Positions 1-12,044 of a DNA stretch of 55,457 nucleotides are shown piece after piece (positions within the stretch are counted from its first letter, which is position 1; every line of letters starts with the position of its first letter). A program made the position numbers and the translations under genes. The stretch is taken from positions 1 through 55,457 of the IMG/VR virus record IMGVR_UViG_3300020472_000032. The stretch is one strand, 5' to 3'. The notes beneath the pieces are model-generated. The model made no database searches, was not told the origin of the DNA, and saw only the letters and a list, made by a program, of their open reading frames with translations. The stretch comes from a virus. Lineage: Duplodnaviria > Caudoviricetes.

Positions 1-1
1 G

Positions 2-607
2 TATTCTTTCAGCCAAGTCGCTGTCGGCTGGTACAGCATAGGTAATTGTGTTTGGTTTAAATGTTAAGTATTCTTCACCAGCAATTTTTTGTGCTTTTAA
101 TGTATCAGGTGTAAACATTAAGTCACCTTGCAATACACCTTCTATTCCTAACTTAGGAAAATGTTCTAAAGCTGTTTTCAGTTTAGTACGTAGACTGCTG
201 GCATCTTTGCCCTGTTGGTCAGCATGAAAGCGTTCTATATCTTCTGGTGTTTTGTTTAGCTTTTTAGTTTTACTAAACACACCTTTTGTACCAACAAAAA
301 ACTTACCATCTTCTGGATCTGTGCCTGCAATAATAGCTGGTGCTCCGTCCCATTTAATACTTACTACTTCTGGTCCGCCACCTGCTACTCCGCTCATTGC
401 ATTTGTTAGTCCGCTGATAAGTTGTATAGCAGTTTCTGCACCTTGTTTCTGTTGTGTAAAAACTAATTCTTCGGCATGCATCAAGTGTGTATTTTTACCA
501 CCTGTTGCTTCTTTTAAATTGTGTAAGGCTTTTTGTACCAAACGATCCTGTCGTGGGCCACGCTTCTTTCTGCGTTTCCATCCGGATATAATCTCTTTAA
601 CTCGCAT
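2..607 (-). CDS. DUF6267-like phage protein with ligase/nucleotidyltransferase-like KxDG motif; 3' end truncated by window edge
   Basis: Absent from the ORF track. ATG at 607 overlaps the upstream gene's 3' end and the frame stays open to the window edge: MRVKEIISGW...NTHLMHAEEL...VSIKWDGAPAIIAG.DPEDGKFFVGTKGVF...VLQGDLMF...FKPNTITYAVP. Confidence 0.75.
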   Translation of the reverse strand, partial: MRVKEIISGWKRRKKRGPRQDRLVQKALHNLKEATGGKNTHLMHAEELVFTQQKQGAETAIQLISGLTNAMSGVAGGGPEVVSIKWDGAPAIIAGTDPEDGKFFVGTKGVFSKTKKLNKTPEDIERFHADQQGKDASSLRTKLKTALEHFPKLGIEGVLQGDLMFTPDTLKAQKIAGEEYLTFKPNTITYAVPADSDLAERI

Positions 608-848
608 TTTTCTTTAACTTCCTTACACCACGTTCAAATATACCCATGTCTTTATTTTTAAGACTAAGCATAAAACGTTTACGGAGATCTGCTTGTGTAT
701 TATCTTCAAAATTACTTTCTATATATTCTAGAAGTTGAATTGCACTACCTAGTACATTTTCACTTCTATAGCTTAATATTTGTTCTTTGCTACTCTTAGG
801 AGCAATACTATTAATTTCTTCAAGAATACTACGAGTTTTCTTTTTCAT
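597..848 (-). CDS. hypothetical protein (83 aa)
   Basis: GGAG RBS and TAAATA box (870-875) upstream; overlaps the next gene. Confidence 0.7.
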   Translation of the reverse strand: MKKKTRSILEEINSIAPKSSKEQILSYRSENVLGSAIQLLEYIESNFEDNTQADLRKRFMLSLKNKDMGIFERGVRKLKKNAS

Positions 849-876
849 AATTAGTCTCCGATATAGTAGTATTTAG

Positions 877-2256
877 CTACTCTGCCTTTTTGAGTATGCT
901 TCGTAGCCTATCACTACTATTAACTGCATTATCTGTTGTTTCTGGCTGTGGTGAATTATTAACTAATGTACTTTTCTTCTTTAATTGATCGTATATGTTA
1001 TTAAAACTGGTATCTTCTGACTCTTGTTCGTCTAAATCTGTAATACGCATACTATCAATATTAAACTCTAAGTCTATTTTTTGTCCTACACCATTACTAC
1101 TACGTGTTTTCATAAACTGTATTTGTATTCTGCCACGTTCACGCATTGCTTTACTACTAAAAATACCAATAACATTGTCTGCTGTTTGTATTTTACTTAA
1201 ACCACCTGCAATATGCGAATGATCAAACTCAATTTCTTCTACTGCACTTCTGTTTAACTGTGAAGCAGTTGCAAACAAATAATTTCCTTCGACTGCAAAG
1301 TTTCTTAGTTCCTCACTTACAAACTTATCCTTAATAAACAAGTCACTTGGTGGTACTTTCTTTTGTGCTGGCATCATTAAGTCCAAATAGTCTACTAATA
1401 TAGCATCTATTTTCTTGCCACTTTGAACCTCAAACTCTTTTATAAAACTACGCAAGTCATTTACTGTAATGCCGTTTGGTAATTGTACAATTTGTAAACC
1501 TGCATTATGTTTTGCGGCCATTTTAACTTTAAGTTCAACATCATCTGCACTTTTTAATACATTACGTGTTGTCATACCGGTTAACATTGCATCAAGTCGC
1601 ATACTACACAATTCTTCACTAAGTTCTAAACTTACATACAAAGTATTAAAACCCTGACCTGTCCAGTTTAGTGCTAAGTTCTGTAAGAAAATACTTTTAC
1701 CTGCACCCGAACCACCTGCAAAGATGTTTAGTTCGCCATTGTTAAATCCGCCATACAGTTTTTCATCTATACTTTTCCAACCTGTGCTGGTTCCACCTTT
1801 AGCATCTTTAATTGCTTGTAATCTACTTTTTGGATCTGCCCAATAGTCTGTTCCTAAATTTTTGTTTAAACTTATTGCTACTGCTTCTTTAACTAAATGC
1901 TCTACTGCACCATATTCGCTTTTGTCCAACATATCTGTACTGGCAAGTATTGCACCTTCCAATCCTTTATGTCTACAAAATGTTTCAAAATCATCTAAGA
2001 ACCAATCCTTATGTGCTGAACCAGTTTCTCCAATGTTTTGCAATTCCATATTTGTTATTGCTTTAACTTGTTCATGTGTGGGCATTGCTCCATATTCACT
2101 GGCATGCTCCTGTATAAACTCTACCGTACTACGCAACGGTCTATCAAAGTATTCAGGCTTTACAATGTTATTAACACGAACAAATAATTCGTGATCATTC
2201 ATCATAAACTCTAAATACAATTTTTGTAATTCTTGACTATATTCTTTTACTTCCAT
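877..2256 (-). CDS. 41: DnaB-like replicative helicase (T4 gp41-like)
   Basis: Walker A AGGSGAGKS, YVSLELSE, LVDYLDLM, TASQLNR, KTR motifs; ATG 2256 has an AGGTG RBS; follows primase. Confidence 0.95.
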   Translation of the reverse strand: MEVKEYSQELQKLYLEFMMNDHELFVRVNNIVKPEYFDRPLRSTVEFIQEHASEYGAMPTHEQVKAITNMELQNIGETGSAHKDWFLDDFETFCRHKGLEGAILASTDMLDKSEYGAVEHLVKEAVAISLNKNLGTDYWADPKSRLQAIKDAKGGTSTGWKSIDEKLYGGFNNGELNIFAGGSGAGKSIFLQNLALNWTGQGFNTLYVSLELSEELCSMRLDAMLTGMTTRNVLKSADDVELKVKMAAKHNAGLQIVQLPNGITVNDLRSFIKEFEVQSGKKIDAILVDYLDLMMPAQKKVPPSDLFIKDKFVSEELRNFAVEGNYLFATASQLNRSAVEEIEFDHSHIAGGLSKIQTADNVIGIFSSKAMRERGRIQIQFMKTRSSNGVGQKIDLEFNIDSMRITDLDEQESEDTSFNNIYDQLKKKSTLVNNSPQPETTDNAVNSSDRLRSILKKAE

Positions 2257-2258
2257 GT

Positions 2259-3254
2259 TCACCTACAATATTGTTTCATTAGTACACGTATTTTTGTTGG
2301 GCTTGTATGTACATTATCTAATATACTTCTAACTGTAAACATTCTACCATATTGTTGCATTGCATCAACACAATCTTTACAATCTTCCCAAGGCGGAAAA
2401 CTTACTCCCCAACCTCTCTCTATAGCACGTTGTACTAGTTTTTGTCCTGGCTCGTCCCTATCTGGACAAACTATAACTTCTTTATTTAGACTATCAATGA
2501 TGTCGGCTTGACGTCTACTGCAAATATTACTTGCTATCGCAACACCACCGGTAACTAACGCATCAAATTGTCCTTCTGTTACTATAGTATAATGTCTTTC
2601 ACGTTGTGCATCTAAATTAAACACATAATCTTTTTGTTGTTGTAAAAAGTATTTTGGTGTTTCTTTATTAGGTACATCACCTATCCAACGTGCAGTATAA
2701 CCTACAACTACATTTTTATAATAGAATGGTAATATTATTCTATCTGCAAAGTGTTTAAAATCACTATAATACCAGTTTGCTAGTGTATCTAGCTTTCTGG
2801 ACGCAAGATATTGTAACGCTTCCTCTATTTTACTGTCGATTGATACTAAGTCTAGTATGCTCTTTGCGTTAGGCGGCAGTTGTACTTCTTTCCAATCTAT
2901 TTTTACAGTTTCTACTTTTTCTGTTGTTCTTTTGTGTAGACTTTGTAGTTCATCTTCACGCATTAGTTCTAAATTAACACGTTGTATGTCACTTTCGTCT
3001 GCACCAAATGTTTTTAGTAAACTGCGTAACTTACCTGTTACTTGCCTACCATTGCTCCAACCAGTTTTAAATCCACAGTTAAAACAATTATATTGAAATG
3101 TACCTTCGTCAAAGAAAAAACCGCCTCTGCTACGTGTATCAGCATTTTCGCCATTTTGTATACACATTGGGCAGTTGCCACTAATCCATCCACTAGGAGT
3201 ACTCTTCCAACCCATTGGAACAGTCTGTCTAACAAACTCTAAAACAACACTCAT
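2259..3254 (-). CDS. 61: DNA primase (T4 gp61-like)
   Basis: Zn ribbon CPMC...CFNC; RIILPF..GYTAR; PKY; TOPRIM VTEGQFDA, PDRD..G, KDCVD. Confidence 0.93.
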   Translation of the reverse strand: MSVVLEFVRQTVPMGWKSTPSGWISGNCPMCIQNGENADTRSRGGFFFDEGTFQYNCFNCGFKTGWSNGRQVTGKLRSLLKTFGADESDIQRVNLELMREDELQSLHKRTTEKVETVKIDWKEVQLPPNAKSILDLVSIDSKIEEALQYLASRKLDTLANWYYSDFKHFADRIILPFYYKNVVVGYTARWIGDVPNKETPKYFLQQQKDYVFNLDAQRERHYTIVTEGQFDALVTGGVAIASNICSRRQADIIDSLNKEVIVCPDRDEPGQKLVQRAIERGWGVSFPPWEDCKDCVDAMQQYGRMFTVRSILDNVHTSPTKIRVLMKQYCR

Positions 3255-3260
3255 ATATGT

Positions 3261-3289
3261 ATATTATACTCTAATTGTGATTTTGTCAA
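3261..3289 (-). promoter_or_regulatory. sigma70-type promoter for primase-helicase
   Basis: TTGACA (3289-3284)-17 nt-TAATAT (3266-3261), then 6 nt to the ATG. Confidence 0.6.
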
Positions 3290-4088
3290 CGGTTCCGGTG
3301 TTACTAGCGTCAGCAACATAATAAAAACGAGCTTTATAAAGATTGTGTACAAAGTTTACAGCTCTAACACCTGATGTAGCTGTAGCATAATTTTCATATC
3401 CAGTTAATCCATTAGTATCTATTGTAAACCAATCAGATTCGCTAGGTGTTGCTTCAACTGATCCTTGTACATAAATTTTACCTATAAAATTAGTTGTATA
3501 AATTGCTACAGTATGCAATCCATCATTTGAACCTTTTAATACACTACCATCTGTTGCACTAGTGTATTGTGGATCTGTTGCACCTGCTCCGCCTGTAAAT
3601 GAACTTAATGCAACTACAGCCTCTACTATAGGTAATGGGCCATCTCTAACTTCAACTGTCCATTGTCCTTTATGATTTAATTGTGGGCTTAATAAAAACT
3701 CTTCGCCTTCGTTGTTTACACTTGTTATTGCCCATTCATACATACCAGAATCTAAATTTGCAATATCACCTGGTTGTAATTTAAATGTAACTCGTGCATC
3801 AGTATAACTGTCTATAATAGCATTTTTTGTGACCACTATAGATCTGTCTGATCTTTTAATTAACTTACCCTTTAGGGTAACATTATTAATATCTGCTGTA
3901 CGCCTACTTTTATCATTGATAACTATTGTTATATGGTTATCAACTCCTTTATGAAAAACGAAAGGCTGATAGGTTGTAGGAGAATTTACCGTAGTACTAC
4001 GTTTGTAGTAGCGACCATACTGAGCACTACTAGTGTCTTTGTTAAGAGTTGCTTCTCCATTGTTGGTATAAGTAAATGCTGTAACCAT
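3264..4088 (-). CDS. putative virion structural protein (two beta-rich domains, BppU/Ig-like N-terminal part)
   Basis: Thr/Gly/Val-rich beta composition; late-type TAAATA box 5 nt before ATG. Confidence 0.5.
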   Translation of the reverse strand: MVTAFTYTNNGEATLNKDTSSAQYGRYYKRSTTVNSPTTYQPFVFHKGVDNHITIVINDKSRRTADINNVTLKGKLIKRSDRSIVVTKNAIIDSYTDARVTFKLQPGDIANLDSGMYEWAITSVNNEGEEFLLSPQLNHKGQWTVEVRDGPLPIVEAVVALSSFTGGAGATDPQYTSATDGSVLKGSNDGLHTVAIYTTNFIGKIYVQGSVEATPSESDWFTIDTNGLTGYENYATATSGVRAVNFVHNLYKARFYYVADASNTGTVDKITIRV

Positions 4089-4108
4089 ACTATTATTTAT
4101 CGAACATC

Positions 4109-4486
4109 ATGACAGTTATCTCATCACGCTATAAAATGTTACTTGAAAAATTTCCATTCCTTACCATGGTCCGCTATGGTAACGATGAATTCATCGGTAT
4201 TGTAGGTAATGCAGACGGTACTGTCTTTAACATGTATTGTTGGGACCTTTTAAAGAGTGACAAAGAAAAGTTAAACTTTTTAAAACTTGGAGAAGAATGG
4301 TGGTTTGAAACAAATCACACTATACCTATTAATATTTTATTATTAAGCAAATGGAATTTTCAAAGTGTATTAAGAAGTTTAAACAATAAAAATGTTGAAG
4401 TAATGTATGGTCCTGTTACTAGTTTTGGAAGTTTAGTAAAAAAGCGAAGTAAACGCAGAAATATCCAACTTCTTAAAAAATACTAG
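4109..4486 (+). CDS. hypothetical phage protein
   Basis: 125-aa ORF filling the gap exactly; its stop overlaps the convergent DnaE-like gene's stop; protein-like composition (KFPFL, LGEEWWFE, IPINILL). Confidence 0.7.
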   Translation: MTVISSRYKMLLEKFPFLTMVRYGNDEFIGIVGNADGTVFNMYCWDLLKSDKEKLNFLKLGEEWWFETNHTIPINILLLSKWNFQSVLRSLNNKNVEVMYGPVTSFGSLVKKRSKRRNIQLLKKY

Positions 4487-5043
4487 CCTTCACAAAGCAA
4501 ATTCATATGTACAACTACACTTAATGCATAAGCCATTGCATGAGCCTTCTTAAAGTAATAATTATCGTTTTCTGGTTTTATCCACACTTGGCTCATTATC
4601 GTTTGCCACGTCTGTGTTGCTAGATGTCTTTTTGCTGGCCGAATTATCGCTAGTACTGCCGCTAATTGTTCTACCGATGTGGGCTTCAATTGTTTCAATA
4701 GTTTGTCGTGTCCGCTTACGTGAAAGACTTGATCTACAAAGTCTTTGTGCTCCAGTAGTTCCCATAGTGGCTCCTTATCCATTAATTCAAATAAATGTTC
4801 TTCATTTTTAACGTTTTTATAAATGCTAACATTCAAACAATCTATTTTAAAATAGCCCATATCCTCTGCTGTTTTATAATCTATTGTGCTTAATCCTGTA
4901 ATTGGATCTTGTGGCATTTCATGAAAGTATACACCTGTGTTATGCTTTTTGCCAGGTTCTATACTTGCAGTAACATAAGGAAATTGATCTAATGCTTTTT
5001 GTCTATCAGCAAAGTCAATATCGATATCTGTATTAGCAATCAT
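4483..5043 (-). CDS. miniature DNA polymerase III alpha (C-family/DnaE)-like catalytic protein
   Basis: DIDIDF (DnaE PDxDxDF), KHNTGVY (KHAGGVV), GYFKIDCL (GLLKFDFL), LAIIRP (ALYRPG), FKKAHAMAY (FNKSHSAAY), all in 186 aa. Confidence 0.85.
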   Translation of the reverse strand: MIANTDIDIDFADRQKALDQFPYVTASIEPGKKHNTGVYFHEMPQDPITGLSTIDYKTAEDMGYFKIDCLNVSIYKNVKNEEHLFELMDKEPLWELLEHKDFVDQVFHVSGHDKLLKQLKPTSVEQLAAVLAIIRPAKRHLATQTWQTIMSQVWIKPENDNYYFKKAHAMAYALSVVVHMNLLCEG

Positions 5044-5816
5044 ATTTTTAATACTTTCTCACAGTAATTAATAAACATATTATATTCTCGTTCCATAGTA
5101 TCTATGCCGTTACTATTAATATATGCACATTCTAGTTTACTACATAAATCTTTTATGTCAAGCTCAAAAAGATCTACAGTTATATCTGGTTCGTATACGT
5201 TGCTTATTGCTTCATCTAATGCAACTTGTTTTGCTTTAGCTAAATCATCATCTGTAGCACAAGTTTTCCAACCCCAATGATATGCACATTGCAATTTCCA
5301 AAATGGCACACTATCTTCTTTTAAGTAATCTACAAATGTATCGTATATATAATTTTTATACTCAGGATTATTTTGGTGATGATCTAATATATGCATATCC
5401 ATAGAACGTTTAATATCAGTAATAGGACGTTCTGCATAACATTTCCAATAGTAATCAAAAAGTCGTTGTGTTGGATTAATTAAAATACGAGTAGCAGGTG
5501 TTATCCATTTTCCACCAGGCCCCCATCCAGCATAACCAACTCCAAATACACCAGTGTCCACTGAAAATCTTTGCATCAGTTTATTAAGGGATTCAAAATC
5601 TCCAGCCTCTTGATGCTTAGTCCATTCTAGTGTCCAATGTTTTTCATCTGTTTCATCTAGTGCATGATTATCCCAAGGATCATTATGTGGATCATTTAAA
5701 TTTTCAAGTCTTCTACGAAAATTATGTGTTTTATACGAAGGAGAGTTTTCTAATATCCAACCTAATACATTAGCTTCAAAAGAGTAGTAACCAAATACAT
5801 GTACTAATCCAGCCAT
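5040..5816 (-). CDS. hypothetical protein (258 aa, aromatic-rich)
   Basis: Long ORF overlapping both neighbours. Confidence 0.7.
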   Translation of the reverse strand: MAGLVHVFGYYSFEANVLGWILENSPSYKTHNFRRRLENLNDPHNDPWDNHALDETDEKHWTLEWTKHQEAGDFESLNKLMQRFSVDTGVFGVGYAGWGPGGKWITPATRILINPTQRLFDYYWKCYAERPITDIKRSMDMHILDHHQNNPEYKNYIYDTFVDYLKEDSVPFWKLQCAYHWGWKTCATDDDLAKAKQVALDEAISNVYEPDITVDLFELDIKDLCSKLECAYINSNGIDTMEREYNMFINYCEKVLKI

Positions 5817-6034
5817 TCAGTAACCTGTATCATTTTATGTAGTTTTTCTTTTGCTTCAGTTTCATTTATAGCAGGAACCCAAGCAGTTCCTTCTCCATCG
5901 TTAAAATTTGTTCTTTCAATTTCTAGTGTAATATCATTGTCAGAATCTTTGTTCATTTTAAGAACCGCTGGACATTTAAACTTTAGTACATATACCTTAG
6001 TTTTTGGCTCCGGGAACTTAACTATATTACTCAT
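5804..6034 (-). CDS. hypothetical protein
   Basis: MSNIVKFP N-terminus typical of small phage genes; ATGA overlap with upstream gene. Confidence 0.7.
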   Translation of the reverse strand: MSNIVKFPEPKTKVYVLKFKCPAVLKMNKDSDNDITLEIERTNFNDGEGTAWVPAINETEAKEKLHKMIQVTEWLD

Positions 6035-6327
6035 ACCTGTGCGTCTTCACCATTACCTAATGGAAAACGCAAAGGCTCTCCTGTAACACTATCCCAACGA
6101 AAACTACGCCAGGCTTCTTTGTCCATGTCCCACACAACTTGTACTTCTTCATTTACTGCTCGTACTTTCTTTTGTGTAAGTGGATCTTTAGATGGAGGTG
6201 GTACATATCCTTCAGCAAGTGTACATCTCATTTTTCTTTTAGTACCATCTTTCTTTGTGAACTCTACTAAAAATTCACTATCAACAAGTCTATCTTTTAT
6301 CCATTGTTTGGTTGTTTCTTCAATCAT
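6031..6327 (-). CDS. WYL-like/SH3-fold protein (DUF2693 family, common in T4-like phages)
   Basis: VEFTKKDGTKRKMRCTL...VWDMDKEAWRSFRWDSV signature; ATG 6327 in ATGA overlap. Confidence 0.8.
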   Translation of the reverse strand: MIEETTKQWIKDRLVDSEFLVEFTKKDGTKRKMRCTLAEGYVPPPSKDPLTQKKVRAVNEEVQVVWDMDKEAWRSFRWDSVTGEPLRFPLGNGEDAQV

Positions 6328-6995
6328 AGTCCTGATTCCTTCCATAAATCTTCGGCCCAGCCTACACTAGCCCTGTCATGTCTTGTTTTATGTGTCCAAT
6401 ATTCTGGATCTATAAACTCTGCAATTCTGCTTATTTGTTCATCGCTTAATCTATCTATAATTGCTTGAGCTGAATCGCAAGTATATATTACCCATGGAGA
6501 TATTTTACCTGTTTGTACCATATGTACAAATCGATTACCTGACACATTTTTAAAGTAATCGCTCCATATACCATCATTTGTTTCTGCCCAATCTTGCATA
6601 TTTAATATGCTTCTTTCTACACCACGTTCTACTGTTTCACTTTTTAGAAAACGTTTAATCCATAACTCTAAAACACGATCACTATACCAGTCACTTAGTT
6701 TTACACTTTCTCTTATAAGAAATTCTACATATTTGTCTGCTGGATCTATTTTATTTTCATCTACATATCTACCAAACTTAACAAAATCTCCGTAGTATTG
6801 TGAGTCACAAAATTCACGTATAGACTTATCTTTTGTTGCACCTGTTGCCAATTTATAAAATGTTTGGAATGATCTAAAACCTAATTGCACTTGCTTATCA
6901 TCACGACATAACCACCTGCGTTTTTTCTCACAGGTATGTGCCGCCAATGTGCTTTCTCTTCTAAAACTTCTCTTACAGTATTCGCATGTAAACAT
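6324..6995 (-). CDS. phage protein with N-terminal C2H2-type zinc finger
   Basis: FTCEYCKRSFRRESTLAAHTC. Confidence 0.7.
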   Translation of the reverse strand: MFTCEYCKRSFRRESTLAAHTCEKKRRWLCRDDKQVQLGFRSFQTFYKLATGATKDKSIREFCDSQYYGDFVKFGRYVDENKIDPADKYVEFLIRESVKLSDWYSDRVLELWIKRFLKSETVERGVERSILNMQDWAETNDGIWSDYFKNVSGNRFVHMVQTGKISPWVIYTCDSAQAIIDRLSDEQISRIAEFIDPEYWTHKTRHDRASVGWAEDLWKESGL

Positions 6996-7465
6996 TATTT
7001 TAATAGTGCTTTGATCTCTTTTGGCTCCATACCATGTTCTTCAAATAATACTTTCCAATCGTCTTTTGTATTATTTGCAATTAGTAATTCTACTTCAGTA
7101 TCATTATAATGTGGATACTGTTCTATAATCCATTTTGCAAGTTTACTACCTTTACCAGCACTATGTGGTCTAATCCATGCATGTTGCCTTCGTACTTTAC
7201 CAGCAGTATGTCCTACAATTTGTAATAGTCGTATTTGCATTTCTGGATGATGTCTAAGTATATTGTAATGTCTATTGCTAAACTCATTTACATATTCTAA
7301 ATAATGTTCTTGCAATGAAACATCACTACTTTGCAATGCACTCATCCAACGTTGCAATACAAATATACTAAGTTTCTTTAATTCTTCTTCTGTTAAACTA
7401 GGATACCAGCTGGTATCACGTGTATCAAGTACTCGCATTTCATTTTGAATACTCATATCTGCCAT
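6995..7465 (-). CDS. clamp loader small subunit (T4 gp62-like)
   Basis: Size and pattern (FVLQRWMS...EYVNE...HPEMQ..LL...HAWI..IIEQY..NDTE) resemble gp62; located in replication block. Confidence 0.6.
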   Translation of the reverse strand: MADMSIQNEMRVLDTRDTSWYPSLTEEELKKLSIFVLQRWMSALQSSDVSLQEHYLEYVNEFSNRHYNILRHHPEMQIRLLQIVGHTAGKVRRQHAWIRPHSAGKGSKLAKWIIEQYPHYNDTEVELLIANNTKDDWKVLFEEHGMEPKEIKALLK

Positions 7466-7707
7466 TAGTGAAACGTTTCCCTTGTTTTAGTTTTATCCGG
7501 ATTAGTTGTTGTTTCAACCACTGAATCCATTAATGCAAGCCACTCTTCTTCGGATAATTGTTCCTGATACATACGTGAAGCAGTTGCCATTAAACAACCT
7601 GCTATTTGCATTGGAGTTGCACCATCTTCAATCTGCCGTATAGTTAAATCCATAATCTCAGTTGATATTTTTAGTAATTCTTTTTCGTCTTCTGTTATTA
7701 TTTTCAT
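7465..7707 (-). CDS. hypothetical protein
   Basis: 80-aa helical ORF in TAATG overlap with the next gene. Confidence 0.65.
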   Translation of the reverse strand: MKIITEDEKELLKISTEIMDLTIRQIEDGATPMQIAGCLMATASRMYQEQLSEEEWLALMDSVVETTTNPDKTKTRETFH

Positions 7708-7711
7708 TATA

Positions 7712-8212
7712 TTACACCAATTTGTTTATGTCAAGTACTTCAGGAACCTTGTTTGCATCTTTAACAAAATATGCACAACGAGGTTTTGGTACATCTTCTA
7801 TAGGTACTGCTAGTATATGTCCATATTTAAGTTTTGGAAAGTACCATTTCATATCTTGGAATACTCCTGTAAACTCTATAGGTAAGTATTCTGCCATATA
7901 ACCTGCAATAGGATTCATTGTAAATGTAGTAAAGCCTCTGTCATTAATACTAGTTAATGGCATTACTTCTGGATCTCCCATATCTGGGTCTGCTATAACA
8001 ACACTCCAATCAATTGGCATCATTAATGAACTGTTGCCAATTTTAATTGTAATAGCAGGAGCATTAAAACTTTCTAAAAATACTAAAGGAACAAAGATGT
8101 AATCTGCTTGTGCAGGATTTGTATAATCTATAACACAATAGCGAAAGTCATCAATTTGTTCGGGGATATGATCTAATTCATATCCTTCATTATCAATAGT
8201 TAAAATCTTCAT
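7712..8212 (-). CDS. hypothetical protein coupled to uvsW (all-beta, possibly Hint-like)
   Basis: ATGA overlap with uvsW; beta-strand-rich. Confidence 0.7.
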   Translation of the reverse strand: MKILTIDNEGYELDHIPEQIDDFRYCVIDYTNPAQADYIFVPLVFLESFNAPAITIKIGNSSLMMPIDWSVVIADPDMGDPEVMPLTSINDRGFTTFTMNPIAGYMAEYLPIEFTGVFQDMKWYFPKLKYGHILAVPIEDVPKPRCAYFVKDANKVPEVLDINKLV

Positions 8213-9660
8213 ATATAATCAACTTTCTGCACGTTAAAAGGGTAGTGTGCTTCCCTATAGAACTTCTTTCGTTGTGTAAGATGCCTTTTGCTAAACTTAC
8301 AACTAGAAGTTATATCCCAAATTTGAATGTGATCTTTGTCTTTAGCTTTACGAATACCACGCCCTATGCTTTGTATTACTCTTACAAAAGACTTACCAGG
8401 CTCAATAAGAACAAGATTGAAGATGCGAGGTATATTGATTCCCACCGAGGCGACTCCATAAGTCGCAACAACAACCATATTCGTAGATTCGTTAATTTCA
8501 GTATAAGTGTCTTTCCTGTCTGCACTTTTCATTGCTCCTTTCACAAAGGTTGCATTTGGTAGCAGTTCTTGTAGCTTTTCACCACACTTAATGCGATCAA
8601 CAAGAACTAATGTATTACCATTCTTGCTCATTTCATCTATAAGGCCACTAATATAATTTAGCCTCTTTGGATCTGTTACCAAATATGTTAGCTCACTTTG
8701 ATAGTTTGGAAAGTCGGCTGTATCTTGCATTTGTATAACATCAATATTACACTCTGCTAATACGCCTTCTTCTTGTAATTCATGTGCAGATAGTTTGTTT
8801 ATAACTTGTCCTAAACTAGCACGTATGCCAAAAAACTCGTGTTGGTCTTTAGGTATTGTACCTGTTAATCCCCAACGTAATGGAACATTGCTAAATGGTC
8901 CTGTTAGTAGTTTCTTTAATACATCTGCTTTTGCTTGGTGAACTTCGTCTACCATAACACATATTACACCTTCTAAAAACTCATTTAAACTAGTTTCGCT
9001 TAACCCATCTCTAAAACGTTTTTCCATACTGTTTAAACTCTGCCATGTGCAGATAGTATGTGTTTTATCCAGTTCTTTCTTATCGCCAAAGTATACACCA
9101 ACATCTAAACCCATGTTATCGTAATCTTCAGCAGTCTGACGCACTAAATCTTTGTTTGGTACTATTACTACAGTTCTGCCATACTGTTCTACACGTTCAC
9201 TGAGTGATGCAGTAATTAATGTTTTACCTGCACCTGTTGCAATCTCTTGTACACATTGTGGTGTATCTAAAAACTGATTTATAATATCAACTTGGTAATC
9301 ACGTAGCACAATAGGTTCTCCTTCAATAGGGTGTCCCTTTGGCCATGTTAAATTTGTATATGTATTTTCTTCTACTGCTTCTGTAGCAAAATCTACATGC
9401 TGTCTATTATCTTGTAAATCTATTTCATACCCATCTGCTTCAAGCAATGGTAATATTTCATCTAGTAGATTAATATATGTGCTACCACCCATGCTAAAGT
9501 ATTGTATAGTACCATCCCATCTTCCTAGTTTATAAGCAGGAACATGATATGCATAAGGTAAAAAGAACTTTAGCTTGTCCATACATTTACGCCTGGTACT
9601 TGTAGCTAGTCCTTCTACTTTACAATTTACTTCATCTTTAAGTACAATTTTACATTTCAT
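8209..9660 (-). CDS. uvsW: UvsW-like SF2 DNA helicase
   Basis: LRDYQ, ATGAGKT, DEVH, GLTGT, GINIP, QSIGRGIR; N-terminal WDG motif. Confidence 0.93.
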   Translation of the reverse strand: MKCKIVLKDEVNCKVEGLATSTRRKCMDKLKFFLPYAYHVPAYKLGRWDGTIQYFSMGGSTYINLLDEILPLLEADGYEIDLQDNRQHVDFATEAVEENTYTNLTWPKGHPIEGEPIVLRDYQVDIINQFLDTPQCVQEIATGAGKTLITASLSERVEQYGRTVVIVPNKDLVRQTAEDYDNMGLDVGVYFGDKKELDKTHTICTWQSLNSMEKRFRDGLSETSLNEFLEGVICVMVDEVHQAKADVLKKLLTGPFSNVPLRWGLTGTIPKDQHEFFGIRASLGQVINKLSAHELQEEGVLAECNIDVIQMQDTADFPNYQSELTYLVTDPKRLNYISGLIDEMSKNGNTLVLVDRIKCGEKLQELLPNATFVKGAMKSADRKDTYTEINESTNMVVVATYGVASVGINIPRIFNLVLIEPGKSFVRVIQSIGRGIRKAKDKDHIQIWDITSSCKFSKRHLTQRKKFYREAHYPFNVQKVDYI

Positions 9661-9666
9661 AATAGT

Positions 9667-9695
9667 AGTTTACACTCTTTCTTCTAATATGTCAA
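9667..9695 (-). promoter_or_regulatory. sigma70-type promoter for uvsW operon
   Basis: TTGACA (9695-9690)-17 nt-TAAACT (9672-9667), then 6 nt to the ATG. Confidence 0.65.
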
Positions 9696-10320
9696 GATTA
9701 CGTTGCCACCATAATTTTTTTAATTCATTGAATTGATCGTGATCAAGTTTAATAGAGAACCTACGATTTAAGTAATGAAAAAGTCGTTCACTTTCTTTAG
9801 TTGAATTCCAAAATTGAAATGGATCTAAACATTTAAAATCCTGATTAGGTAAATGTTTTAAGTGTAAATTTAATTGTTCTGGTGTTATATAAAGGTCACC
9901 TTTATTTGTTGTTAGTTTCATATCATGTAACCCTGCACAAAATTTACCTGCTTTTTTATTTGTTGCTATTAGAAAAATAAAAACACTATTCCAATCCTCA
10001 AATGATTTAATCATTTGTTGAGTATGCTTTAGATGTTTATATTTTAATATTAGTATCCAGTTTGCATGTTGCCTATGTAAGTTAATAAGTGTATCGTCGG
10101 TTGCCCAAGATGGATCTAATTCCATACTAGGAACATGACCTTTATCCTTACTCCAACTTTCATAATTTAAATTAATGTGCTGACCATAAACATTCCATTT
10201 GTTTTTGTCATGGTCATAATAAACCTTCTGTGTCACAAAAGGTGTTTGTTGGCTTAGAGCCCACGTTAAGAACTCACCTCCTGCTCCTGGTTGATATACT
10301 ATGTTTACTACTTTTTTCAT
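9670..10320 (-). CDS. hypothetical protein, possible degenerate P-loop/sulfotransferase-like fold
   Basis: N-terminal IVYQPGAGGEFLTWAL loop; start moved to ATG 10320 because the upstream extension lies inside a terminator. Confidence 0.55.
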   Translation of the reverse strand: MKKVVNIVYQPGAGGEFLTWALSQQTPFVTQKVYYDHDKNKWNVYGQHINLNYESWSKDKGHVPSMELDPSWATDDTLINLHRQHANWILILKYKHLKHTQQMIKSFEDWNSVFIFLIATNKKAGKFCAGLHDMKLTTNKGDLYITPEQLNLHLKHLPNQDFKCLDPFQFWNSTKESERLFHYLNRRFSIKLDHDQFNELKKLWWQRNLDILEERV

Positions 10321-10328
10321 ATTAATAT

Positions 10329-10362
10329 AAAAGTGGGAAGGAGCCAATTAAGACTCCTCCCC
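10329..10362 (-). terminator. intrinsic terminator after AAA ATPase
   Basis: GGGGAGGAGTC-ttaatt-GGCTCCTTCCC followed by ACTTTT. Confidence 0.7.
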
Positions 10363-10407
10363 TACGGTCCATTGGAGTGAGAGAGGGCGTAGGTTGGACC
10401 GTGACCC

Positions 10408-11250
10408 TTAGCTGACTACTCGCTTCATGCAAGTAACCTCAACATATCGTTTCCATGTCTTAGGTTGATGTTTCATCAAATCAGCAATCTTTGTTACCAT
10501 TCGCAAACTAACTTCTCTCAATTTTTCTTTGTTTGCGGCCATGTAATTCATTAATGCAGTTTCCTGCGACTTTTCAAATTTGTAATCCGAAAGCATACCG
10601 TCTTTAACCAACTGCTTACACCTTAGGAACTTGTCCCTCATAGTATCAAGTGTAAGATCTAAATAGTGACATCTAGACATAATAGCATCTAGGTGATCTT
10701 TAAGTTTACCTCTTGTACCTTCGAACTTTAAGTTTGTAATAAAGATAACCGAACCTTTAAATTCAAATCTATCAGGAATACCTTCACGTCTTAAAAGTGA
10801 ACTATCTGTATTCCAACTTAGGAACCTATGTTTACTACTATCTAGAGCCGCCTTAAGCAAGTTCAAACTAGTTTCATCATGTAATACTGTATCACAGTCG
10901 TCCATAACCAACACAGACCCTTTGTCTGAATTTTCATAAAGAACTTTGTACAAACCAATGGCACTAGAAGCACCTTTAATAACTTGGAAACGATCTCGTT
11001 TACCAGCCATTTTATCGAACATTCTGTTTTCGTTAAGCACTTGCTCAACACCAAATGATTTACCAACACCTGGAGGTCCAGTAACAACCATACCTCTAAC
11101 AACACCATCAACTGATGCTTGTGTCATATCATTTAAGATATCAAATCGTTCACGTAAACGTTTGATAATTTGAACATCTGTTTCTACAGGCTTTTCGGCC
11201 TTCTTAACACTTACTTTTGTATTTTTGGAAATTTTTAATTTAGTAGCCAT
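10408..11250 (-). CDS. AAA+-type ATPase
   Basis: Walker A GPPGVGKS, Walker B LVMDDCD, sensor IFITN, SR finger; GGAG RBS before ATG 11250. Confidence 0.85.
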   Translation of the reverse strand: MATKLKISKNTKVSVKKAEKPVETDVQIIKRLRERFDILNDMTQASVDGVVRGMVVTGPPGVGKSFGVEQVLNENRMFDKMAGKRDRFQVIKGASSAIGLYKVLYENSDKGSVLVMDDCDTVLHDETSLNLLKAALDSSKHRFLSWNTDSSLLRREGIPDRFEFKGSVIFITNLKFEGTRGKLKDHLDAIMSRCHYLDLTLDTMRDKFLRCKQLVKDGMLSDYKFEKSQETALMNYMAANKEKLREVSLRMVTKIADLMKHQPKTWKRYVEVTCMKRVVS

Positions 11251-11290
11251 GTGTCTCACTCCTTGACTTGTTTTTATTACCTACACTATT

Positions 11291-11319
11291 ATAATACGAC
11301 AGGGTGCATAAAAGGTCAA
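11291..11319 (-). promoter_or_regulatory. sigma70-type early promoter
   Basis: TTGACC-17 nt-TATTAT with A-rich upstream. Confidence 0.7.
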
Positions 11320-12044
11320 CCTTTTATTTCCTCTATTTTCATATAATTTAACATTGTTTCTTTACAATTAGTGTATTTGCTAATTTCATGTCCTTTAATT
11401 CTAGCATTAATGCTTATTACTTTACCATCCATAACTTTTGTTAGATCTGGATCTTTATTCCAGAAAAACTTAACAATATGTTTATCATCATAAACTGTGG
11501 TTACAATAAAGTTACCAAAGTTTCGTAGATATTTGATATCGATTACCTTTAAATCCATTGATATTCTACCACTTACTTTACCTACATACTCACTAGTACG
11601 TTTATATTTTGACATCATATCTGAAAATTCTTCACGTTTTTGATCAACACCAAAACTTTTAGGTAAACTGGCGGCAACACTAACACCAAATTTATCTACT
11701 GTAGAATTCATTATAAATCCTGCAACTCTATCTTCAAATCCATTTAGTTGATCACTAAGTTTTTTGAAAGTCAAACTCTGTTGAAAATGTTCAGTGATTT
11801 CTTTTGCACGATCACTAATAGTTGGATCAGTTTCAACTAATTTTAAACAAGCCGAAGCATGTTTATCTTTTGCTTGATTATTGTCTAACATAAAACCAAT
11901 AACAGTTTTGTTATCGTGGTGTCTAGTTTCTTTTTCTTGATCATACCAACCATTACCACTGCTAATAAAACCTTGATAATCAGTAACTGCAACGGCATAT
12001 TGCATTACAGTAGTAATATCGTATTGTGCTTTAGGCTTAGCCAT
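11316..12044 (-). CDS. hypothetical early protein with possible C-terminal OB-fold
   Basis: SEYVG...KETMLNY C-terminal pattern; GGAG RBS. Confidence 0.65.
   Translation of the reverse strand: MAKPKAQYDITTVMQYAVAVTDYQGFISSGNGWYDQEKETRHHDNKTVIGFMLDNNQAKDKHASACLKLVETDPTISDRAKEITEHFQQSLTFKKLSDQLNGFEDRVAGFIMNSTVDKFGVSVAASLPKSFGVDQKREEFSDMMSKYKRTSEYVGKVSGRISMDLKVIDIKYLRNFGNFIVTTVYDDKHIVKFFWNKDPDLTKVMDGKVISINARIKGHEISKYTNCKETMLNYMKIEEIKG

Follow-up and report, generated by a model that had tools for sequence, protein, structure and literature searches.

Why does a 186-residue open reading frame (ORF) in a phage replication block carry the catalytic residues of the alpha subunit of bacterial DNA polymerase III (Pol III alpha, DnaE), and what could so small a protein do with them? 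The ORF lies on the minus strand of IMG/VR virus record IMGVR_UViG_3300020472_000032, a stretch of 55,457 bases (hereafter the window) from an uncultured marine lineage, with 36% G+C and estimated to hold ~15% of a genome. An earlier note on this DNA had described the ORF as a minimal C-family polymerase, possibly one subunit of a split enzyme. The latter suggestion is borne out by colinearity with one half of the DnaE core, by a separate N-terminal gene in complete relatives and by natural fusions of the two. The title of minimal polymerase needs amending, because the protein is without the nucleotide-binding (GS-motif) half, which is carried by that separate gene. We conclude that the ORF very probably encodes the C-terminal unit (C-unit) of a two-polypeptide minimal C-family polymerase of the Rak2/121Q/PA5oct/Atu_ph07-like ('group 2.2') jumbo phages, the other polypeptide being the N-terminal unit (N-unit).

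The ORF is intact, with 186 codons and an ATG start that overlaps the stop of the upstream ORF (coordinates of all features are collected in Table 1). Every motif previously reported for it can be read in order in its translation: DIDID, K33-H34..G37-V38, KID, RP, and F164-K165-K166-A-H168..A171-Y172, the last in full. D6, D8 and D10 correspond to E. coli D401, D403 and D405, equated through positions 415, 417 and 419 of Mycobacterium tuberculosis DnaE1. The first residue of the protein stands only 5 residues ahead of the DxD strand. In E. coli DnaE, individual residues have roles in triphosphate binding and sugar discrimination.

Searches of solved structures led to the C-family alone among their leading matches. 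With phmmer, residues 5-16, 88-138 and 161-174 aligned with M. tuberculosis DnaE1 residues 414-425, 613-664 and 774-787, and a family profile of 81 homologues matched nine distinct PDB sequences, all nine of them Pol III alpha; the best was E. coli 2hnh_A (E 4.5e-6), in which K758 and H760 align with K166 and H168. From the 81-row alignment AlphaFold2 gave a model (mean predicted local distance difference test, pLDDT, 96.6; predicted template modelling score, pTM, 0.88) for which all of the top 15 Foldseek rows against the PDB are C-family polymerases (best E 2.7e-4, TMq 0.44-0.52). VIA-align placed residues 1-186 of this model on E. coli Pol III alpha (2hnh) 397-778 (Z 9.5, 180 residues aligned, root-mean-square deviation 4.2), on Thermus aquaticus (Taq) 458-835 (Z 9.6) and on M. 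tuberculosis DnaE1 417-805 (Z 9.6); its top 13 rows were all C-family polymerases (Z 9.6-6.2, 180-185 of 186 residues), followed by an unrelated row at Z 3.7. Relative to E. coli 397-778, approximately 200 residues are deleted, the thumb included, and as the alignment covers only this range, the PHP, clamp-binding and OB parts are missing from the ORF, as had been noted. By sequence and predicted model alike, the C-unit thus corresponds, in colinear order, to the second half of the DnaE palm together with part of the fingers.

Compared with the bacterial C-family structures available (2HNH from E. coli; 3E0D, 2HPI and 4IQJ from T. aquaticus; 5LEW and 7PU7 of M. tuberculosis DnaE1), the phage protein has in common with DnaE and PolC a Pol-beta-like palm, the DxD, a third aspartate with its preceding lysine, R-P and F-x-K-S-H, all colinear. 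It differs in size, the C-unit having 186 residues and N- and C-units together ~370, against ~1100-1400 for the bacterial enzymes, and in that the split enzyme is without the PHP, thumb, beta-clamp-binding and OB domains of bacterial DnaE. The bacterial core is a single chain, whereas the phage catalytic core is divided between two distant genes.

The C-unit belongs to a large and coherent family. It matches phrog_11778 ('DNA polymerase') with E 1.6e-66, residues 3-185 falling on profile positions 5-193 of 197, and also phrog_405, a DnaE-like family of 1190 positions, with E 1.6e-7; this full-length match, together with residues invariant across 81 diverse homologues, places the motifs beyond chance. 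Homologues were found by tblastn in 96 phage records, all of them jumbo phages and all below 60% identity, 94 of which cover at least 80% of the query; identities in cultured phages are 53% (Phosso, the maximum), 52% (PA5oct-like), 49% (Atu_ph07) and 42% (121Q/PBECO4-like), and several of the matched GenBank records of cultured phages carry the label 'DNA polymerase III alpha'. Fetched IMG/VR contigs are closer, at ~57-91% identity; window positions 1-12000, compared by megablast with the phage collection, matched nothing there. In a large protein collection, at least 7986 clusters (90% identity), among 8000 scored candidates, reach E <= 0.001, as do 414 representatives at 50% identity. The length of the protein is conserved: the best 120 cluster matches span 144-192 residues, with 54 of them exactly 186, and 90 of 150 listed representatives have 175-220 residues. 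Within these 90, the DxD occurs in the first 25 residues in 88, K-x-D in 89, RP in 87 and the K..H pattern in 83. One longer representative (P0231, 233 residues) begins with ~112 residues of C-unit followed by an unrelated tail, and is probably a frameshift or chimeric gene call.

Conservation was assessed in an alignment of the window protein with 80 of the 150 listed representatives, those whose match covers nearly the whole query; the other 70 (fragments, partial matches and two long forms) were excluded. D6, D8, K66, D68, R135 and P136 are invariant in these 81 diverse sequences, and conservation reaches at least 90% at D10, A26, H34, G37, P44, W94, P121, A128, A132, I134, K165, H168 and A173. 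In a comparison with L003, the nearest of the fetched relatives (91% amino-acid identity), the proportions of non-synonymous (pN) and synonymous (pS) differences are 0.058 and 0.658, and the ratio of the corresponding substitution rates (dN/dS) is ~0.04 (0.038), with dS near saturation. The C-unit gene is under strong purifying selection. Relaxed selection or variable catalytic aspartates, which would have spoken against a working enzyme, were looked for and the opposite was found; the view that the ORF is no truncated or decayed copy gains from the same ratio, from the invariant catalytic residues beside deleted spacers, and from the constant length of its homologues.

An arrangement of this kind is already in print. 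The relevant part of Iyer, Anantharaman, Krishnan, Burroughs and Aravind (2021, Viruses 13:63, PMC7824862) describes a split minimal Pol III alpha from sequence, and states that the family B polymerase (PolB) of group 2.2 jumbo phages has beside it a minimal Pol III alpha specific to phages. The gene studied here is a member of their C-terminal unit family, with which it has in common its size, a start at the DxD, the conserved motifs and a T4-like phage background; it differs from known members in that its lineage is marine and uncultured, and its identity to cultured-phage copies does not exceed 53%. According to Weinheimer and Aylward (2022, PMC9123017), PF07733 occurs in 51.9% of the marine jumbo-phage cluster PGC_A.

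PF07733 is also the domain by which the partner can be recognised. The Phosso N-unit is a 177-residue ORF that matches PF07733 at positions ~20-96 (E 7.9e-13) and ends in ...GVGRGSSVASYVLFLIG...EFLN. N-units of 161-185 residues (phrog_11127) are present in both of the complete IMG/VR relatives (G006 and G007, rated 100%) and in G009, and their general form is a length of 160-185 residues with the ending ...GVGRGSS...EFL[RN]. GVGRGSS is invariant in 43 N-units, and all 111 full-length N-units have G[RK]GS[SA] 30-35 residues before their C-terminus. Because N-units end 30-35 residues past this motif and C-units start just before the DxD, the split point is uniform, and a uniform split point leaves no room for intein halves. 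The two genes lie far apart: 120-210 kb in G006, G007 and G009, ~31-44 kb in the E. coli and Pseudomonas isolates, and ~180-220 kb in Atu_ph07 and Phosso (224 kb in Phosso). Among the matches listed (40 of 96 C-unit rows, 60 of 121 N-unit rows), at least 19 cultured-phage accessions carry both units.

In a few protein clusters the two halves occur as one chain. Three diverged clusters of 375-376 residues from ENA and Logan (P0192, P0391 and P0392, 78-81% identical to one another) are natural N+C fusions; in P0192, phrog_11127 matches residues 8-180 and phrog_11778 residues 190-374, and PF07733 spans the junction. An AlphaFold2 model of this fusion (pLDDT 87.8, pTM 0.86) was built on a shallow alignment (A6) in which the first 14-23 residues of 11 C-unit rows are misplaced; two MAFFT alignments of fused proteins with N- and C-units (A3, A4) were discarded, since they placed C-units on the N-half. 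The model matches 5lew with Z 22.2 over 339 aligned residues, Taq structures with Z 20, Geobacillus PolC (3F2B, the comparator used for a fused N+C relative) with Z 18.5 and E. coli structures with Z 13-16, and the first 16 rows are all DnaE or PolC (Z 22.2-12.1). After the polymerases come Pol-beta-like nucleotidyltransferases, which match P0192 residues ~102-267, across the junction, with Z 3-5. To judge by the end residues given for these alignments, the range matched by the model begins at residues 9-15 of the DnaE chains, inside the PHP region. The first ~90 residues of the N-unit may, on this modelling, be what is left of PHP or of the linker between PHP and palm.

Complex prediction for the window C-unit with the G009 N-unit gave a score of 0.89 in three runs, whereas none of 3 controls scored above 0.01; the runs share at least 85% of their contacts, and the pLDDT of the partner is 77 or more. 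The mark used for this score is reached by 116 of 157 solved complexes and by 2 of 215 mismatched pairs. In the predicted complex the DxD strand (residues 5-12) is in contact with a partner segment (residues 146-159) that includes the GVGRGSS loop. The fusions, the fused model and the complex together predict that the two units form one enzyme, and the complex result by itself is consistent with this, short of proof.

Other polymerases of the lineage bear on the role of such an enzyme. The window has no PolB within its 55 kb, ~15% of a genome. PolB ORFs of ~900 residues occur in four of five long relatives, both complete ones included, and Phosso has a PolB ORF of 1013 residues, so that the co-occurrence proposed for checking was found. 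The proposed search for a separate PHP gene turned up none: across 4 relatives' genomes, no PF02811 match rises above the Pfam threshold. A weak PF02811 match in G009 (E 0.004) was set aside, as it falls in a 230-residue ORF that by eye resembles a sugar-nucleotide cytidylyltransferase. Judging from the relatives' sequences, the N-unit and PolB of the window's phage must lie outside the 55-kb fragment.

A further C-family gene was encountered among the relatives. It is a single-chain, PHP-less DnaE-like ORF of 549 residues (L034:538-2187, minus strand; L015:17850-19499; also L011 and L032) that adjoins DnaB and matches PF07733 (E 5.1e-41), PF17657 (E 3.3e-16) and, as its best NCBIfam match, the 'error-prone DNA polymerase' model NF004225 (E 3.7e-52). 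Three of the 31 related loci have it, on contigs where the split C-unit is present as well; the window does not. Both this ORF and the split C-unit are C-family cores without PHP from the same phage lineage, but the former is unsplit, retains the stretch between the DxD and the third aspartate, and is much closer to bacterial DnaE/ImuC-type profiles. Phages with this ORF would have PolB-lineage relatives and two different cut-down C-family enzymes.

The neighbourhood of the C-unit was compared across 31 related IMG/VR loci with flanks of up to 10 kb, some loci being shorter. A conserved frame runs from a helicase (27 of 31) through ORF166 (27), ORF156 (30) and ORF223 (31) to the C-unit (31), then ORF125 (28), a structural-like ORF274 (21), primase (24) and DnaB (22). 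In the window the replication block comprises DnaB, primase, a superfamily 2 helicase, UvsX, UvsY and a gp32-like single-stranded DNA-binding protein, and a T4-like structural core comprises terminase, portal, major head protein and sheath. The earlier note had placed the ORF near a primase, a helicase and a clamp loader: the first two stand, and the third is not established, since the ORF at 10408-11259, probably the one meant, has generic AAA Pfam matches only and no PDB sequence match.

Table 1. Features of the window discussed in the text, with the evidence for each; locus counts refer to the 31 related loci.
Feature	Position	Strand	Evidence and remarks
C-terminal unit of predicted split minimal Pol III alpha, 186 aa	4483..5043	-	ORF, phrog_11778, AlphaFold2 model, dN/dS
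D6-I-D8-I-D10, metal-binding DxD strand	5014..5028	-	translation; alignment to 5lew (M. tuberculosis DnaE1)
K66-I-D68, third catalytic Asp with preceding Lys (E. coli K553/D555)	4840..4848	-	profile alignment to 2hnh_A
R135-P136, fingers motif (E. coli R639-P640)	4636..4641	-	profile alignment to 2hnh_A
K165-K166-A-H168, F-x-K-S-H fingers motif (E. coli N757-K758-S-H760)	4540..4551	-	profile alignment
ORF running off the left end, 3'-open	2-607	-	DUF6267 (PF19782, E 3.5e-50), phrog_455
DnaB-like helicase	877-2262	-	phrog_19 E 1.1e-75, Pfam DnaB_C; downstream of C-unit, 22/31 loci
Toprim primase	2259-3254	-	phrog_47 E 2.4e-27, Pfam Toprim_2; downstream of C-unit, 24/31 loci
Convergent neighbour, 125 aa	4109..4486	+	phrog_11637 E 1.6e-28; 28/31 loci
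Variable cargo ORF, 258 aa, directly upstream of C-unit	5040..5816	-	homologue in 1/31 loci
WYL_2 protein	6031-6345		PF10902 E 3.9e-12
Upstream neighbour, 223 aa, putative N-terminal C2H2-like zinc finger	6324..6995	-	phrog_11058 E 2.9e-69; 31/31 loci
Small replication-block ORF	6995-7465	-	phrog_11758 E 5.9e-17; 30/31 loci
Candidate promoter, perfect sigma-70 consensus TTGACA-17-TATAAT	7706..7734	-	12/12 matches
Small replication-block ORF	7712-8212	-	phrog_11279 E 1.8e-47; 27/31 loci
Conserved AAA+ ATPase	10408-11259	-	phrog_1250 E 1.6e-81; 21/31 loci

Three neighbouring ORFs had been put forward as partners of a split polymerase, and none can be recognised as one. The ORF at 5040-5816, without a Pfam, PHROG or NCBIfam match and missing from the two nearest relatives (L003, L004), is variable cargo because it is found in only one of the related loci, and was rejected as a partner on the same grounds. 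The two conserved neighbours show no polymerase domain by Pfam, PHROG or NCBIfam; the ORF at 4109-4486 has no Atlas match, that at 6324-6995 has Atlas viral look-alikes only, and its zinc finger comes from a weak zf-C2H2 match. The slot directly upstream of the C-unit is, by comparison of sequences, a cargo hot spot that holds no partner gene. In the window (5040-6345) it contains the WYL_2 protein, a 76-residue ORF and the orphan 258-residue ORF, and in G009 (L129:4636-6212) it contains ORFs that by eye appear P-loop kinase-like, small membrane, nucleotidyltransferase-like (137 residues) and deformylase-like. Elsewhere in the window, the ORF at the left end has a K-W-D-G motif, seen by eye, that recalls the adenylation motif of ligases. 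The sigma-70 site could possibly drive the minus-strand gene string from 7707 to 4483; promoter-like sites overall are not above shuffled sequences (21 vs 18.7 +/- 4.8).

The reading of the gene as one half of a polymerase must be tempered by several observations that weigh against it. Curated models stop short of the C-unit: PF17657 scores 18.1 bits, below its cut-off of 22, PF07733 does not match, and TIGR00594 reaches 15.9 of the 434 bits that it requires. The N-unit is absent from the window, where no match to PF07733 is found, tblastn with the Phosso N-unit gives a best E of 0.93, and a scan for G[RK]G[SA] has two matches, one within ORF 6995-7465 and the other within the portal gene, both outside any N-unit context. 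Nor was an N-unit found in G008 (73% complete), G010 (60% complete) or the five fragments G001-G005, apart from the different 549-residue gene in G002. As the window is ~15% of a genome, we infer its own N-unit from those of its relatives, and its lack in the window is uninformative. The complex prediction was built on custom alignments, for which the calibration counts hold roughly only, its partner came from another genome (the C-unit of G009 being 64% identical to that of the window), and the pass may be a memory in the model of DnaE, solved as a single chain. It is not self-evident that a protein without thumb and clamp-binding parts would synthesise DNA efficiently. A search of a literature library returned only the 2021 prediction for the split Pol III alpha and no biochemical assay. 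For transcription of the region there is a weak hint: two runs of a single marine metatranscriptome study have contigs with short pieces at least 99% identical to the window (shares 0.21 and 0.08), one piece spanning 4904-5077, across the C-unit start. DNA carry-over could account for these pieces, and gaps in the cover carry no information. In the PA5oct omics paper (PMC7318152), 'DNA polymerase' occurs 0 times, with no expression data for the homologue.

A self-sufficient 186-residue polymerase or primer-extension enzyme, active by itself or with no partners beyond the adjacent primase and helicase, would accord with the presence and conservation of the three catalytic aspartates and the fingers motifs and with the position of the gene in a conserved block with primase and DnaB; yet, starting 5 residues before the DxD, it would be without that half of the Pol-beta-like fold which bears the GS motif, a dedicated N-unit accompanies it in complete relatives and in cultured phages, and natural fusions exist in which the modelled Pol-beta-like core spans both halves, so that we hold such an enzyme to be highly improbable. 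Even less credence is due to the idea that the gene is what remains, in decay, of a dnaE acquired from a bacterium, or that it encodes a DnaE half linked to the other through a split intein. Both fragments of DnaE and DnaE genes with split inteins do exist in nature, but dN/dS of ~0.04, thousands of same-length homologues and invariant catalytic residues speak against decay, and neither unit has space for an intein half at its split end.

Two further alternatives accept the pair of units, or add to it. The N/C pair could be a non-replicative nucleotidyltransferase (untemplated tailing, nucleotide-signal synthesis, or protein or DNA nucleotidylation), given that its Pol-beta-like core is common to ANT(2''), MenT, CCA-adding and Cid1 enzymes (Z 3-5), that the thumb, clamp-binding and OB domains are gone, and that the lineage already has PolB. 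This we regard as distinctly unlikely, because the invariant residues outside the palm are the C-family fingers motifs R-P and F-x-K-S-H, and the best structural matches are DnaE and PolC by a wide margin (Z 22 vs 5). It is also rather unlikely that the neighbours at 6324-6995 and/or 4109-4486 are extra subunits, for example replacing thumb or DNA-binding parts: they adjoin the C-unit in 31/31 and 28/31 loci, with the same order in Phosso, and a zinc finger in the former could bind DNA, but neither resembles any DnaE domain, synteny alone is weak evidence, and variable cargo separates 6324-6995 from the C-unit in both the window and G009.

For the two-polypeptide C-family polymerase, which remains the preferred explanation, we propose that the C-unit pairs non-covalently with the separately encoded N-unit of ~160-185 residues. 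The N-unit would supply a helix and the GVGRGSS loop to bind the triphosphate of the incoming deoxynucleoside triphosphate, a Pol-beta-like active site would be completed across the subunit interface, and the resulting heterodimer would carry out templated DNA synthesis. As there is neither a PHP, thumb, clamp-binding nor OB domain, and a gp43-like PolB is present in the lineage, it would most likely be an auxiliary polymerase (for primer extension, for one strand or for repair), not the main replicase.

Two known systems offer partial parallels. Cyanobacterial DnaE is likewise encoded in two distant pieces, which are joined by a split intein; the phage halves are without one, and with no intein halves their assembly must be non-covalent. 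Bacillus DnaE extends primers as the partner of PolC, and is similar in being a second polymerase beside a main replicase, the likeness in primer extension being an analogy only. A comparable sharing of work between two polymerases is seen in eukaryotes, with Pol alpha/delta, as it is in Bacillus with DnaE/PolC. That the small Pol III is itself a dedicated primer-extension polymerase, which would take RNA primers from the primase two genes away and pass short stretches of DNA on to PolB, with the protein of 6324-6995 as a DNA-binding accessory, is a tentative idea that we find doubtful; if true, it would make this the smallest known C-family enzyme, with an active site put together where two subunits meet.

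For a split enzyme that had been predicted by 2021, whose two halves each have a PHROG family and which many GenBank jumbo-phage records already label, the present copy brings nothing new in principle. What is added here is the uniform split point, the rare N+C fusions, the 549-residue unsplit PHP-less cousin of a sub-lineage and the cargo hot spot upstream of the C-unit. The family is very abundant in metagenomes, occurs alongside a PolB replicase, and has been put forward as a model for the ancestral Pol III module; with ~370 residues in two chains, its core would be the smallest among C-family polymerases.

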